Positions 2,040 through 5,639 of a DNA stretch of 64,000 nt are shown piece by piece (the stretch's first letter is position 1; each line of letters opens with the position of its first letter). The position numbers were made by a program, and so were the translations under genes. Below the pieces are notes generated by a model. It saw only the letters and a program-made list of their open reading frames with translations, made no database searches and was not told where the DNA came from. Origin of the DNA: Spirochaetia bacterium (lineage in GTDB: Bacteria > Spirochaetota > Spirochaetia > UBA9216); assembly GCA_965140585.1 (NCBI GenBank), contig OZ223265.1:64001-128000 (forward strand), in the 5' to 3' direction.

Positions 2040-2768
2040 TCAATCTGTGAGAAGCCGGTACAGTTCAGCTTCGATAGCCATGAGTTTCGGATGATCCGGA
2101 TTTCGTTCAGATATTTTCAACGGGTTTTCAATGATCTTTCTGATGACGGCCGGGCGTCTTCCCGACAGAACTATAATTTCATCGCCAAGAATCAGCGCCT
2201 CATTGATGTCATGGGTAACAAAAACTGCAGTCCGGTTATCAGCCGTCCAGAGCTTCAAAAACAGACTGGTCAGTTCCAGCTTAAGACGAAGATCCAGAGC
2301 CTGAAAGGGTTCATCCATAAGTATCATGCCGGCGGGGTAAGCAAAGGCTCTCGCAATAGCAACACGCTGACGCATACCGCCGGAAAGTCTTGTAGGATAG
2401 TATTTTTCAAATCCCGACAATCCAACTGCGTGAAGAAAATAGGCAGCTATTTCCCTGCAATCTTTCGGGGAGTGATCGACTTTTAACACAAGTTCAATAT
2501 TCTGCATTGCAGTCCGCCAGGGAAGCAGCCTCGGCTCCTGAAACAGATAGCTTTTACGCTTCGATTCAGCACCGACTTCAATATTTCCTTCCTGCGGCAG
2601 AAGAAGTCCGTGAACAAGATTCAGAAGGCTGGTCTTACCGCATCCGGAAGGACCGAGTATCGCGGTAACTGATGATGCTTTCAGATTCATGCTGAACCCA
2701 CTGAATATAGGCTCTGTGCTGCCCGGATACCTAAAACTGACATTTGAAATCCTTACTGCAGCATCCAT
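2040..2768 (-). CDS. NitT/TauT-family ABC transporter ATP-binding protein
   Basis: GPSGCGKT, FQEPRLLPW, LSGGMRQR, MDEPF, FVTHD. Confidence 0.93.
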   Translation of the reverse strand: MDAAVRISNVSFRYPGSTEPIFSGFSMNLKASSVTAILGPSGCGKTSLLNLVHGLLLPQEGNIEVGAESKRKSYLFQEPRLLPWRTAMQNIELVLKVDHSPKDCREIAAYFLHAVGLSGFEKYYPTRLSGGMRQRVAIARAFAYPAGMILMDEPFQALDLRLKLELTSLFLKLWTADNRTAVFVTHDINEALILGDEIIVLSGRRPAVIRKIIENPLKISERNPDHPKLMAIEAELYRLLTD

Positions 2769-3529
2769 CAGGCACCTCCCCTGATAAATCCTGCCGAAAT
2801 GAAATCAAGTATTTTTTCACTCAGCCAGCTTAGAATAATTGCTGTCAATGTCCAGGCAATAACCTCGGCAGTTTCAAGGTTCATCTGGGCAAACTGCATC
2901 CCGGAACCTATAGCCCTTACCGGCTGGCTTAAGACCTCAGCTGCAATTACCGATTTCCAGGCGACACCCACACTGGCCCGTACACCCGAAAGAATAAAAG
3001 GAACCACCGATGGAACAGTTATATGCAAAAGAATGTCCCGGGAGGAGAGCCTGAAGACCTGGCCCATCTCAATCAGTGCCGGGTCAATGCTCCTTATTCC
3101 TTCGGTTACATTAGCAGTTATTATTGGAAATACCATCAGAAAACAGACAAAAACCGGCACCATATCCGTTTTAAACCATATCATAGCCAGTATTATAACC
3201 GACATCACAGGAACAGTTCTGATTATGGTTATTAAAGGCGAAAGAGCAGAATTAATAGTCCGGTTTGAGCCGCAGGCTATTCCGGTTACGAAGCCGGCAG
3301 CAAATGAAATGAGAAATCCCAGCAGTGTTCTCAGCGCTGTATTGCCTACGGCTTCATGGAATTCAGCCGTAACTGCAATTTCCGAAAGCCTTTTTATAAC
3401 AGCTTCCGGTGCAGGAACAATGATGGGAATATTTATTCTGACCGCAGCAAGCTTCCATATTACAAGCAGAACCGCAGCGGTCAGAATTCCTGGTATAAGT
3501 GTCTTTTTACTTGAAGTAAAAGCCTTCAT
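2768..3529 (-). CDS. NitT/TauT-family ABC transporter permease
   Basis: Hydrophobic, EAA-like loop, WKSVIAAEVL..GSGM; likely start MKAFTSSKK at 3529. Confidence 0.9.
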   Translation of the reverse strand: MKAFTSSKKTLIPGILTAAVLLVIWKLAAVRINIPIIVPAPEAVIKRLSEIAVTAEFHEAVGNTALRTLLGFLISFAAGFVTGIACGSNRTINSALSPLITIIRTVPVMSVIILAMIWFKTDMVPVFVCFLMVFPIITANVTEGIRSIDPALIEMGQVFRLSSRDILLHITVPSVVPFILSGVRASVGVAWKSVIAAEVLSQPVRAIGSGMQFAQMNLETAEVIAWTLTAIILSWLSEKILDFISAGFIRGGA

Positions 3530-4490
3530 CAGGCAGGGAGCCTCCAAGGGATACTGGATCAAGTTCCATGAACATTCCAAGAAAATCAACTACATCAGCC
3601 ATTGCATCCTGTGCAGATATATACTTTATACCCGTAAGAGGAATTGCGCTCGCAGCAGTTGACGCAGCCATTATACCGTATTTCTCTATAACCTGCCCGG
3701 CGGCCTTTGGATCTTCAAGAACCCAGTTAATTGAACGCTCAAGCGCTGCAGAAAGGGCTCTCGCCGCTTCGGGGTTTTCAACAGCAAGACGGGGGCTTAT
3801 TACAAAGGCTGTAAAAGGAAAGGCTTGCTCCCCTCCCCTTAAATCTTTGAGTTCTTCCTGTGGGTCCAGGACATTTTTTACTGCGGGATTTTTCATTCCC
3901 GTCTGCATAACAAAGGGCTGCGGAATAAAAGCAGTATCAGCTTTACCGGCAATCAGCAGCTGGGCGACCTGCGGAGCCTGTGCTGTGAAATCAAGAGTAA
4001 CATCACGATCGGGATTAAGCCCGTTCTTTTCAAGAATATACCTTAGCAGGTAGTCGGGGGTTGCACCCTTTCCTGTTATATAAATCTTTTTTCCTTTTAG
4101 ATCTGCCCAGTCTTTTACGTCCGGATCCGATGAAACCATGTACAGTGAGCCGAGTCCGCTTACAGCGGCAAGTTTAAAACCGGGCCCCTTTGAATAAAGC
4201 TTTGCTGCAGTATTTACCGGCAGAAATACACCATCGGCCTGTCCGCTTGTCATTTTGGCTATCGCTTCAACAGGCGATGATACAATTATGTATTCGGCCC
4301 GTACTCCGTAGCCTGGCTGAAAATTCTCATTAAGCAGCCCTGCGGCAGCAAAACCTGAAGGCCCCTTTAAAGCAGCCACTGTCACTGTAATATCCTCGGC
4401 AGCAGCAGGCAGAACAGCTGCCGCAGAAAGAACTGCAGTCAGCAGAACAGTGAGTATTACTTTCTTAATACCTGTTTCTCCTCGTGTCAT
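3507..4490 (-). CDS. NitT/TauT (SsuA-like) ABC substrate-binding protein
   Basis: Signal peptide, VAALKGPS, DLKGKKI..GKGATP, PQPF motifs. Confidence 0.88.
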   Translation of the reverse strand: MTRGETGIKKVILTVLLTAVLSAAAVLPAAAEDITVTVAALKGPSGFAAAGLLNENFQPGYGVRAEYIIVSSPVEAIAKMTSGQADGVFLPVNTAAKLYSKGPGFKLAAVSGLGSLYMVSSDPDVKDWADLKGKKIYITGKGATPDYLLRYILEKNGLNPDRDVTLDFTAQAPQVAQLLIAGKADTAFIPQPFVMQTGMKNPAVKNVLDPQEELKDLRGGEQAFPFTAFVISPRLAVENPEAARALSAALERSINWVLEDPKAAGQVIEKYGIMAASTAASAIPLTGIKYISAQDAMADVVDFLGMFMELDPVSLGGSLPDEGFYFK

Positions 4491-4511: not shown

Positions 4512-4784
4512 TTATTCCGGTTCAATCGTTTTGCTGATACCGGTTTTAACAGTTACCCCGTCAATTCTACCGAGTTTACCTGTAAATGCACCTATTTCGT
4601 CTGTATTGGCATGGAGGATAAGAGTAATTATTGAAAGTTTCCCGGTATCTATATTAGGAAGGCCCATTCGGCCCATTATAATAGTAGAAAATTCAGAAAT
4701 TATCTGCTGCACGGCAGATGCACTTTTTTCCCGTTCCTGAATTATAATTCCGGTAAATGCGTATCGTTTTTCCGACAGGCTCAT
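4512..4784 (-). CDS. TM1266-family (iron-only hydrogenase system) putative regulator, ACT-like fold
   Basis: GIII...VQQIISEF...IMGRMGLP...IGAFTGKLGRIDGVTVKT. Confidence 0.85.
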   Translation of the reverse strand: MSLSEKRYAFTGIIIQEREKSASAVQQIISEFSTIIMGRMGLPNIDTGKLSIITLILHANTDEIGAFTGKLGRIDGVTVKTGISKTIEPE

Positions 4785-4862
4785 CTTTCCTCCTTCTGGA
4801 GGAAGGTTATTGAAGTGATGTTCATTTTACACCTCAGGTCAGTAAAACCTTCCATCAGAGCC
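4785..4862 (-). promoter_or_regulatory. Structured 5' leader with alternative SD-sequestering hairpin
   Basis: UUCCUCC-AGAA-GGAGGAA hairpin over SD competes with GGAAGGUU/AACCUUCC stem; inner hairpin UGAGGUG/CACUUCA. Confidence 0.6.
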
Positions 4863-4867
4863 TCTAC

Positions 4868-4896
4868 AGGATATTATCAAAAACTGCATCTGTCAA
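4868..4896 (-). promoter_or_regulatory. Sigma70-type promoter of TM1266-ABC operon
   Basis: TTGACA-17 nt-TATCCT. Confidence 0.65.
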
Positions 4897-5639
4897 TCAG
4901 ATAGATTTTTTATAAATTCATTCATCCCAGCATCGAGAGAACTGTGAATAAAATTGTACAGAGCTCGCTGATTTTCAGCATCCATATTGCGATCGAAGAT
5001 CATGACATGTATTTTTCTGCCGGTAATCTTGCGTTCAAGATTCTTCATTGCTTTAAGATAGAGGTGATCCTCTCCAAGATCCAATCTTATTTCCAAAAGT
5101 TCATCTGAGACAGGGATCTCGCTTTGATCCGGAAGGCTGCAGGATAATCCGAGTGAACTTATATCATGAACATGACCTTCAGCAACCATCGTCGGCAGAA
5201 TAACCTTGATACCGGCTACAGTTTCACCGTACCCCCCGTATCTTACAAAATTTCTCCGGCCTTTGCCTCCGAAACTCGTAAACGTATTGCGCAGATCCTC
5301 TATAACCGTTTCAGGATCCCCGTGGCAACAGACTGAAGCATCCCAGAAATCAGTTTCAGGCGGTAGATCTTCATAGAGGGAAATCATGGTTATCTTGTGT
5401 TCATATTCTAAATCAGATAGCTGATCGTAAACATCCTTCGCAAGCCAGTTGAAATCGTTTTTAATCAGATTTATACATAGGATACTGCCCGGATAGAATT
5501 CCATCAACACACGTATTTTTTCATGATCTGATAAATAGTATATTTCAAACTGGTCTCTCAAGTAGCCGTGAAATATTTTATCCCTCAACTGTTTATCTGG
5601 GTAAAGAATAAATATTTTTTTTCCGGAAAAATCATCCAT
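4893..5639 (-). CDS. PilZ-domain protein with N-terminal receiver-like domain
   Basis: RRNFVR (RxxxR) and DISSLG (DxSxxG) c-di-GMP-binding motifs. Confidence 0.75.
   Translation of the reverse strand: MDDFSGKKIFILYPDKQLRDKIFHGYLRDQFEIYYLSDHEKIRVLMEFYPGSILCINLIKNDFNWLAKDVYDQLSDLEYEHKITMISLYEDLPPETDFWDASVCCHGDPETVIEDLRNTFTSFGGKGRRNFVRYGGYGETVAGIKVILPTMVAEGHVHDISSLGLSCSLPDQSEIPVSDELLEIRLDLGEDHLYLKAMKNLERKITGRKIHVMIFDRNMDAENQRALYNFIHSSLDAGMNEFIKNLSD

Follow-up and report, generated by a model that had tools for sequence, protein, structure and literature searches.

What kind of element lies in the short leader ahead of a TM1266-family gene in a Spirochaetia bacterium of the GTDB lineage UBA9216? 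The leader and its predicted promoter lie at positions 4,785 to 4,896 of a 64,000-nucleotide (nt) stretch of DNA (assembly GCA_965140585.1, contig OZ223265.1, positions 64,001 to 128,000) that we call the window and to which all coordinates refer unless another record is named; the leader, its promoter and the neighboring genes are on the minus strand. A preliminary description had proposed an orphan translational switch, either an unknown small-ligand riboswitch or a binding site for the TM1266 protein. Our comparisons with related loci show that the leader belongs to a widespread and hitherto uncatalogued class of cis-regulatory RNAs that stand at the head of operons beginning with TM1266, and this RNA probably switches the downstream operon on and off. 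The general part of the earlier proposal, an unrecognized regulatory RNA, has held up, and the comparisons add covariation, alternative expression platforms, and the lack of a match in Rfam, but neither of its two alternatives is singled out, though linkage and anatomy lean toward the protein rather than a ligand. Our main reading is that TM1266 itself is a ligand-gated RNA-binding attenuator acting on the leader, to which we give a probability of roughly 45%.

Alternative pairings in the window leader

The predicted leader spans ca. 77 nt from 4861 to 4785 (GCUCUGAUGGAAGGUUUUACUGACCUGAGGUGUAAAAUGAACAUCACUUCAAUAACCUUCCUCCAGAAGGAGGAAAG) and is directly followed by the AUG of the TM1266 gene. 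It had been claimed that its anti-Shine-Dalgarno box CCUUCCUCC pairs either with the Shine-Dalgarno sequence or with an upstream GGAAGGUU, and all of the named pairings were indeed recovered. In the closed state, UUCCUCC (4804-4798) pairs with the Shine-Dalgarno sequence GGAGGAA (4793-4787) over 7 base pairs (bp; -10.8 kcal/mol). Alternatively, GGAAGGUU (4853-4846) and AACCUUCC (4808-4801) form 8 bp in a helix that runs on past a 2x2 loop into UCUG/CAGA (4859-4856 with 4798-4795), amounting to -14.9 kcal/mol in total. This long-range helix is called P1 below. Its 5' strand, UCUG-AU-GGAAGGUU (4846-4859), holds a first purine box (CUGAUGGAAGG, 4858-4848), and its 3' strand, AACCUUCC-UC-CAGA (4795-4808), holds the anti-Shine-Dalgarno box. 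The 5' strand is followed by a UUUUA linker (4843-4847), which is the site of a hairpin P2 that is reduced here to at most a U-A pair, and by a CUGA junction (4839-4842) that is conserved in an alignment of 44 5' domains. A second purine box, UGAGGUG (4836-4830), is the 5' strand of helix P3 and the counterpart of an AGGG box in other phyla; it pairs with CACUUCA (4817-4811) at -6.9 kcal/mol. The preliminary description had correctly noted this last hairpin, but in this form it is specific to the window's genus (L001, L014). The first and second boxes of the window leader are alike (CUGAUGGAAGG and CUGACCUGAGG).

The open fold composed of P1 and P3 reaches -21.9 kcal/mol, compared with -17.7 kcal/mol for the closed fold of P3 and the Shine-Dalgarno hairpin. 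The unconstrained minimum of -29.1 kcal/mol corresponds to the closed fold with the 5' end additionally paired with the first codons. In this fold, GCUC at the predicted start of the transcript (4858-4861) can pair with the GAGC of AUGAGC in codons 1-2 (4779-4782), and the same pair is found in L010, L011, L013, and L016; it may help to hide the start codon or may follow from a conserved Met-Ser start.

As a single sequence, the leader has a weak folding z-score of -1.68, and 8 of 200 shuffles fold equally well, as would be the case for chance purine- and pyrimidine-rich runs without function near a strong Shine-Dalgarno sequence. This explanation is contradicted by the comparative evidence presented below and also by the uniqueness of the bipartite sequence, which occurs once in the 4.85-Mb genome (reversed control: 0), and by a strict 36-bit pattern of the element that found 0 matches in 400 other Bacteroidota genomes (control: 0). 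We consider it scarcely credible.

Conserved architecture and covariation

The window leader is a full match to R1 (4792-4861; 48.3 bits), a covariance model of the TM1266 leader motif with 81 positions and 19 pairs that was built from 18 related leaders (E=1.7e-11 in a search of the window together with the metagenome locus L160, E=1.1e-9 in the whole genome). The architecture shared among the leaders comprises the long-range helix P1, formed by CCUGNGGNAAGG and a pyrimidine 3' strand, the hairpin P2, the CUGA junction, and an AGGG box that opens P3. In P1, the first 12 nt (CCUGNGGNAAGG; UCUGAUGGAAGG in the window) pair with a pyrimidine strand located 25 to 180 nt downstream. When this 12-mer was compared with the downstream leader using RNAduplex, its complementarity exceeded that of 200 mononucleotide shuffles of the leader (p<=0.05) in 40 of 52 leaders, and the 12 leaders failing the test include three short forms without any downstream partner. 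Both strands of P1 show matched changes, i.e., CCUGCGGUAA/UUACCGCAGG, CCUGAGGUAAG/CUUGUCUUAGG, and CCUGAGGC/GUCUCAGG, and further CUUGCGGUAAG/CUUAUCGCAAG and UCUGACGGAAG/CUUCCUCAGA.

Hairpin P2 typically has 2-4 bp and is located directly between AAGG and CUGA, though it is much longer in L006, L021, and L039, where hairpins of up to ~60 nt are inserted between the boxes. Using sequence anchors instead of the model, 73 of 102 P2 positions are paired compared with 42.3+-4.4 after shuffling of the partners (0 of 2000 shuffles reach 73), a signal that holds despite about a dozen rows that were mis-anchored by the regular expression. The closing pair is UA, AU, or CG in 11 cases each and GC in two. 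P3 begins at the AGGG box, whose partner is a CCC(U) stretch that immediately precedes the P1 3' strand.

Across an alignment of 41 sequences, 81.4% of cells are paired compared with 74.4+-0.8% in shuffles, and both-side changes are seen at 5 of 12 pairs of P1, 3 of 3 of P2, and 3 of 4 of P3; none of 500 shuffles matches the covariation score of the alignment, 0.263 (shuffles: 0.182+-0.010), and sliding the partners yields no more than 0.112. These numbers lean toward structure because the alignment was fitted to R1, which weakens them as support for our interpretation, while the P2 anchor test and the P1 duplex test are free of this bias. A covariation analysis of TM1266-family leaders had been suggested in the preliminary description as a check of the proposed switch; with P1, P2, and P3 all supported and a score above all shuffles, the leader appears to be a conserved, structured, cis-acting RNA.

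The arrangement of two similar boxes 15-19 nt apart, at about +1 to +30 from the predicted transcription start, could also be that of a DNA operator, with a transcription factor binding the direct repeats (two copies of CTGA-N3-RAGG) immediately after the promoter. Yet the helices have many G-U pairs (16 and 17 of 41 at the AAGG guanines in P1, 11 of 41 in P3), as fits an RNA of this strand and not a DNA palindrome, just as the covariation of P1, P2, and P3 is sensible only in such an RNA. The long hairpins between the boxes of L006, L021, and L039 and the coupling of terminators and Shine-Dalgarno hairpins to the 3' strand also speak against an operator, which is very unlikely in our view. 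The boxes keep their G residues whereas the pairing positions alternate between C and U, which suggests sequence-specific reading of the purine strand.

The leader had not been recognized as a thiamine pyrophosphate (TPP), S-adenosylmethionine (SAM), B12, molybdenum cofactor (Moco), flavin mononucleotide (FMN), or purine riboswitch, and the comparison with Rfam 15, which covers TPP, SAM, cobalamin, Moco, FMN, purine, NMT1/xanthine, and glycine families among others, agrees with this assessment. At gathering thresholds, there were 0 matches in the 64-kb window and 0 in 20 related loci (98,001 bases), and a permissive search (E<=10) gave only noise of 12-19 bits (small nucleolar RNAs, microRNAs, small RNAs, long non-coding RNAs, and one thermoregulator) far below threshold. 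Three other identities were discarded. A reading of CUGA as part of a C/D-box-like K-turn fails with the absence of the partner GA outside Spirochaetes, CsrA-type GGA sites were set aside in view of the invariant CUGA, and the window form has too few G runs for a G-quadruplex. To our knowledge, Bacteroidota have no CsrA. In the part of the literature accessible to us, we found no RNA element described before TM1266 or hydG, though a published list of candidates could still hold the motif.

Occurrence across bacterial phyla

The element is larger and far more widespread than the unit noted at first. TM1266 homologues are encoded in 19 of 41 related Spirochaetia genomes, and 12 of 23 upstream regions from Spirochaetia that were inspected by eye share CUCUGA-N-GGAAGG, a short spacer, and CUGAC(C/U)-YRAGG. 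With 11 aligned TM1266 proteins as the query, the species-representative genomes yielded 334 relatives, of which 80 loci were kept; the nearest named relative of the window is a marine "Spirochaetia bacterium" metagenome-assembled genome (MAG) with 96% protein identity. Leaders of the same plan were found in Bacteroidota records (Draconibacterium, Sunxiuqinia, Mariniphaga, Odoribacter, and others) as well as in Omnitrophota, Planctomycetia, Dehalococcoidia, Moduliflexus, Auribacterota, WOR-3, TA06, and Chitinivibrionales. Searching 54 TM1266 loci with R1, we obtained matches at E<=0.001 in 41 loci from Spirochaetota, Bacteroidota, Omnitrophota, Planctomycetota, and other phyla, each of them just upstream of the TM1266 gene and on the same strand. 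Over 92 loci, the model gave 64 matches at E<=1, with 55 loci matched at the leader and the remaining nine matches being weak and either misplaced or on the opposite strand. The consensus of 44 aligned 5' domains is AAAUCCUGCGGGAAGG-N7-CUGAC-N-C-N-AGGGGAA, with CUG, the second G of AAGG, and the C of CUGA being invariant and the U and final A of CUGA nearly so (90% or more); the G of CUGA belongs to neither group.

Genomes with a credible copy have just one (G000, G001, G006, G042-G045), and the window leader is the only site that R1 finds in the window's genome (G000). Across the 41 Spirochaetia genomes, R1 finds the TM1266 leaders of G000, G001, and G006; its weak matches G033:C90 and G039:C41 were rejected as plain long hairpins without the CUGA core. 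Among five genomes of other phyla, four have a single match that is always the TM1266 leader, and the fifth was missed by the candidate filter. No second copy before other genes was found in the genomes searched. The sequence pattern gave four matches in 151 Omnitrophota genomes, two of which are followed by TM1266 and two of which (L234, L235) were discarded as not motif-like and without model support. In a metagenome collection, the pattern was found in 117 stretches, and of the 80 matches listed, six are immediately followed by TM1266 in the same orientation and one is cut by the contig end. Around 72 of these 80 were rejected as lacking model support, a number expected by chance for a collection of this size. 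Matches to a relaxed form of the pattern in Chloroflexota (L227-L229) lie within a conserved open reading frame (ORF) of 201-202 amino acids (aa) in three genomes and are coding false positives. Thus, searches without a protein query still land on TM1266 leaders, be it with R1 or with the pattern and in genomes or metagenomes.

Not every TM1266 gene heads an operon. In several records labelled Oceanispirochaeta and other Spirochaetia (L035, L036, L038, L042, L046, L048, L050, L056), the gene directly follows an apparent coding sequence, as judged by eye, and has no leader motif.

Expression platforms and short forms

In the clade of the window, 5-18 nt separate the AUG from the end of the P1 3' strand, within which the anti-Shine-Dalgarno box lies. 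This pyrimidine box has two near-equal partners in seven of eight clade leaders (L001, L010, L011, L013, L016, L006, L021), with duplex energies of -9.5 to -14.6 kcal/mol for the 5' domain versus -11.0 to -12.5 kcal/mol for the Shine-Dalgarno region and a whole-leader energy gap between the two states of ~5 kcal/mol or less. The eighth, L009, is weaker (-10.0 and -7.8 kcal/mol). In 17 of 19 leaders of other phyla (Omnitrophota, Planctomycetota, and others), the P1 3' strand is spanned by a terminator-like hairpin with a U run. Judged by eye, this hairpin overlaps the P3 3' strand with its 5' half, so that P1/P3 and the terminator would compete. The platforms therefore seem to differ by lineage, with Shine-Dalgarno sequestration in the window's clade and intrinsic termination in most of these other leaders. 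As in protein-dependent attenuation, the putative target overlaps an antiterminator or anti-sequestor.

A third layout is represented by the short leaders L008, L017, and L020, which consist of the 5' domain only and whose second box, AAGGAG, is the Shine-Dalgarno sequence itself, located 4-10 nt before the AUG. These short forms have neither the P1 3' strand nor P3, and their remaining ~35 nt form a weak hairpin. Since they keep the purine boxes without the three-helix fold, it seems from these sequences that the recognized unit is the boxes and not the fold. Five other Spirochaetia families (L005, L007, L012, L015, L018) have CUGAUCC(A/G)(G/A)AGG 8-10 nt before the AUG, where it overlaps the Shine-Dalgarno sequence of TM1266-hydG operons; R1 gives no score to these five leaders, one of which (L018) has three box-like units in a row.

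We propose the following mechanism for these layouts. Two purine boxes, ..CUG-N-GG-N-AAGG and CUGA-N3-4-RAGG(G), lie on either side of P2, the small covarying hairpin. As long as the RNA is free, the first box would pair with the downstream pyrimidine strand to form P1 and the second would open P3. In the window, this would tie up the anti-Shine-Dalgarno box CCUUCCUCC and leave the ribosome site open, while the terminator layout would have the 5' half of the terminator tied up, with the operon ON in both cases. An effector on the purine boxes would release the pyrimidine strand, which in the window could close the 7-bp hairpin over the Shine-Dalgarno sequence (OFF) and in Omnitrophota, Planctomycetota, and others could form the intrinsic terminator. 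In the short forms, the bound effector would sit directly on the ribosome site with the same OFF logic. We infer both the direction of the switch, with folded P1/P3 as ON, and the identity of the effector, which would be the TM1266 protein as a small ACT-like oligomer whose affinity for RNA is presumably set by a metabolite as for PyrR, TRAP, and HutP. An effector-bound state that is OFF gives one logic for all three layouts, while an aptamer made of P1/P3 would be ON when bound in long forms and OFF in short ones.

TM1266 as candidate effector

The first gene after the RNA is TM1266 in all credible cases but one, whatever cargo comes next. In most lineages, TM1266 heads [FeFe]-hydrogenase maturase genes, with HydG following in other Spirochaetia, HydG and an aspartate ammonia-lyase-like gene in Draconibacterium, and HydF and then HydG in a Planctomycetia MAG; HydF also adjoins TM1266 in one Dehalococcoidia and one Moduliflexus record. 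In the window's family, the cargo is an ATP-binding cassette (ABC) importer, and L044 has genes for a YitT-like membrane protein and a binding protein. The leader does precede a TM1266-ABC operon here as initially described, but "importer operon" is too narrow a scope for an RNA that travels with the TM1266 gene. TM1266 thus directly follows the RNA in front of at least four kinds of cargo, which establishes linkage of the two and no more than that. We place TM1266 first as effector because RNA and gene travel as a cassette, the purine strand is fixed, and the boxes are repeated.

The TM1266 protein of the window matches PF21699 with 88.7 bits (cut-off 27), TIGR03959 with 90.2 bits (cut-off 60.8), and TM1266 of Thermotoga maritima (PDB 2NZC, an entry with four chains) with E=4.2e-13. 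Its predicted structure (predicted local distance difference test score 90.4) has a beta-alpha-beta-beta-alpha-beta topology and an ACT-like/NikR-C-like fold, with Foldseek TM scores of 0.84 to 2NZC and 0.72-0.80 to the C-terminal (tetramerization) domains of NikR. The nickel site of NikR is His3Cys. Despite the shared fold, the window protein cannot form such a site with its one His and no Cys and, unlike NikR, has no DNA-binding domain. The T. maritima protein is a clear homologue from a family named for its neighborhood of HydE/HydF/HydG maturases, though the window gene adjoins no hydrogenase maturase.

The annotation of TM1266-family proteins as "putative iron-only hydrogenase system regulators" derives from gene neighborhood alone, and in the part of the literature accessible to us we found no paper that gives them a mechanism. 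A conserved RNA directly upstream provides this annotation with a testable one. If true, our proposal would make TM1266, with its ACT/NikR-like fold, an RNA-binding attenuator of a new kind; in the other case, there would be a new riboswitch class reporting a metabolite of hydrogenase cofactor assembly. Either outcome would show how anaerobes of many phyla control H-cluster maturation, with a bearing on hydrogen metabolism in sediments and guts and on engineered hydrogen production, and a compact two-state RNA switch would join the catalogue.

The one exception to the linkage with TM1266 is a metagenome copy, L160, with 28.8 bits to R1 and all 12 P1 pairs at 2317-2386 (+) of its contig. This intergenic leader lies 40 nt before a [NiFe]-hydrogenase large-subunit-like gene (PF00374, 274.7 bits), followed by genes for a radical SAM protein, a NifH-like protein, two NifD/K-like proteins, HypD, and HypE up to about 10736. 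The operon appears to be an unusual cofactor-assembly cluster and is the sole non-TM1266 context found. The platform resembles that of the window by eye in that CCCCUUCCUC has two options, pairing with GGAAGGGG in the 5' domain or forming a hairpin that covers GAGGAGG.

Several observations weigh against TM1266 as effector. The 10.8-kb contig of L160 has no TM1266 gene, a context that would fit a metabolite sensor or trans regulation. The motif is also missing from some TM1266 genes that apparently start an operon (L002, L004, L019, L024), and single boxes 3-13 nt before ORF starts give no sign of a TM1266 regulon in the window's genome (5 versus 6 in the reversed control). The Foldseek search with the window model found no RNA-binding relative, the nearest being metal-binding domains of NikR and ACT domains. 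In Bacteroidota (L060-L106), most leaders have no terminator-like hairpin and P1 stops at one of two distances from the AUG, either 10-14 or 62-102 nt, so that the ON/OFF direction may not be universal. Finally, strong conservation across phyla with differing platforms is also a classic signature of riboswitches.

The RNA alone might therefore form a new metabolite riboswitch for a small molecule tied to TM1266 function and to assembly of the Fe-CO/CN cofactor, with TM1266 as carrier or buffer of this molecule and not as regulator. The aptamer would be either the P1/P2/P3 fold, with the ligand turning expression ON, or the compact 5' domain, with the ligand turning it OFF. Such a class would account for a 5' leader with covarying stems and conserved junction bases in many phyla, for one sensor being joined to at least two kinds of expression platform, and for the L160 copy heading a non-TM1266 operon that also concerns hydrogenase-type cofactors; it would be an orphan given the lack of any Rfam match, and TM1266 has no precedent as an RNA binder. 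However, TM1266 follows the RNA in nearly all cases while the cargo varies, unlike the usual spread of riboswitches over biosynthesis and transport genes, and no second copy stands before other genes in the genomes searched. The short forms without the P1 3' strand and P3 show that the three-helix fold is no universal aptamer, and a P1/P3 aptamer would have its ligand act in opposite directions in long and short forms. No candidate ligand is suggested by the genomic contexts. We regard a riboswitch as a serious possibility all the same. A more specific and tentative version of it, which we find somewhat doubtful, is an orphan class in at least eight phyla for a ligand common to Fe-CO/CN assembly of [FeFe] and [NiFe] hydrogenases with TM1266 as its dedicated carrier; this would explain hydG/hydF operons, the HypD/HypE operon, and an importer in a bacterium without maturases.

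If TM1266 were just the first cargo, the leader could also respond to some other trans-acting factor, such as another protein, a small RNA, or the ribosome, or else to temperature, metal ions, or a similar physical signal. With the two folds so close in energy, many inputs could tip the balance, and L160 has no TM1266 nearby. Nevertheless, consistent linkage is seen for TM1266 alone, and this alternative offers no account of why the RNA and the TM1266 gene are so tightly paired across phyla. Specific recognition is also what the invariant CUGA and AAGG/AGGG boxes point to, and we find this alternative improbable.

Likeness to known systems

In PyrR attenuation of the Bacillus pyr operon, the regulator is encoded by the first gene with its own RNA target ahead of it, and a small molecule sets its affinity for RNA. 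The candidate discussed here resembles PyrR in its first-gene position and in a 5' element that chooses between two downstream folds. Yet PyrR has a phosphoribosyltransferase fold and binds one stem-loop, whereas TM1266 is an ACT/NikR-C-like protein of 90 aa and its putative target consists of two purine boxes around a hairpin.

TRAP recognizes 9-11 GAG/UAG triplets and HutP recognizes UAG triplets; the gene for TRAP is no neighbor of its target. Both are small oligomers gated by an amino acid that bind repeated purine-containing boxes in single-stranded RNA, and the candidate is likewise small with repeated boxes. TRAP/HutP systems use terminators at some sites and cover the Shine-Dalgarno sequence at others, matching the long and short forms described here. 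In contrast, the TM1266 leaders have two (sometimes three) boxes of ~11 nt, and the protein folds are unrelated. SAM, TPP, and preQ1 (prequeuosine-1) riboswitches are likewise 5' sensors with covarying stems and interchangeable platforms, with a pyrimidine strand shared by P1 and the platform, but unlike them the element described here has no Rfam match, is nearly restricted to the gene of one small protein, and has some copies without P1.

Locus, promoter, and gene order in the window

The sole promoter-like site found by a consensus scan of the minus strand in the leader region is sigma-70-like, with a TTGACA hexamer (-35; 4891-4896), a 17-nt spacer, and a TATCCT hexamer (-10; 4868-4873). 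It would place the transcript start near 4861 and thereby define the leader as 4861 to 4785. By eye, a TTGACA-17-TAnnCT layout is also present in the orthologous leaders L008, L010, L011, L013, L016, and L020.

Behind the leader, the gene content is as first described, with TM1266 (4512-4784; 90 aa) followed after a gap of 21 nt by an ABC substrate-binding protein of the NMT1/SsuA/phosphonate-binding type (3507-4490; 327 aa) and then by a NitT/TauT-type permease (2768-3589; true start probably downstream of the listed TTG) and an ATPase (2040-2768), all identified by profile matches and with the ends of the last genes overlapping or abutting. This is the only TM1266 gene of the genome. In G000, which is 98.49% complete, we found no match to HydG at E<=0.001 and no HydF above cut-off (best 79.5 versus 325.55 bits), with only generic GTPases detected. 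With neither HydG nor an above-cut-off HydF in the genome, the RNA-TM1266 pair appears to be uncoupled from hydrogenase maturation in this organism, and it would be a portable pair that has moved onto an importer. The name of the TM1266 family is misleading for this organism, whose protein passes the TIGR03959 equivalog cut-off, yet HydG and above-cut-off HydF are missing.

Upstream of the leader, an ORF of 248 aa (4893-5639) without Pfam or NCBIfam match ends inside the TTGACA hexamer, which overlaps its stop codon (4893-4895). A similar C-terminal coding sequence (ending ..EFIKN..) is found directly before the leader in the related L008, L011, L013, and L016, suggesting that the order of upstream ORF and leader is conserved in the window's family.

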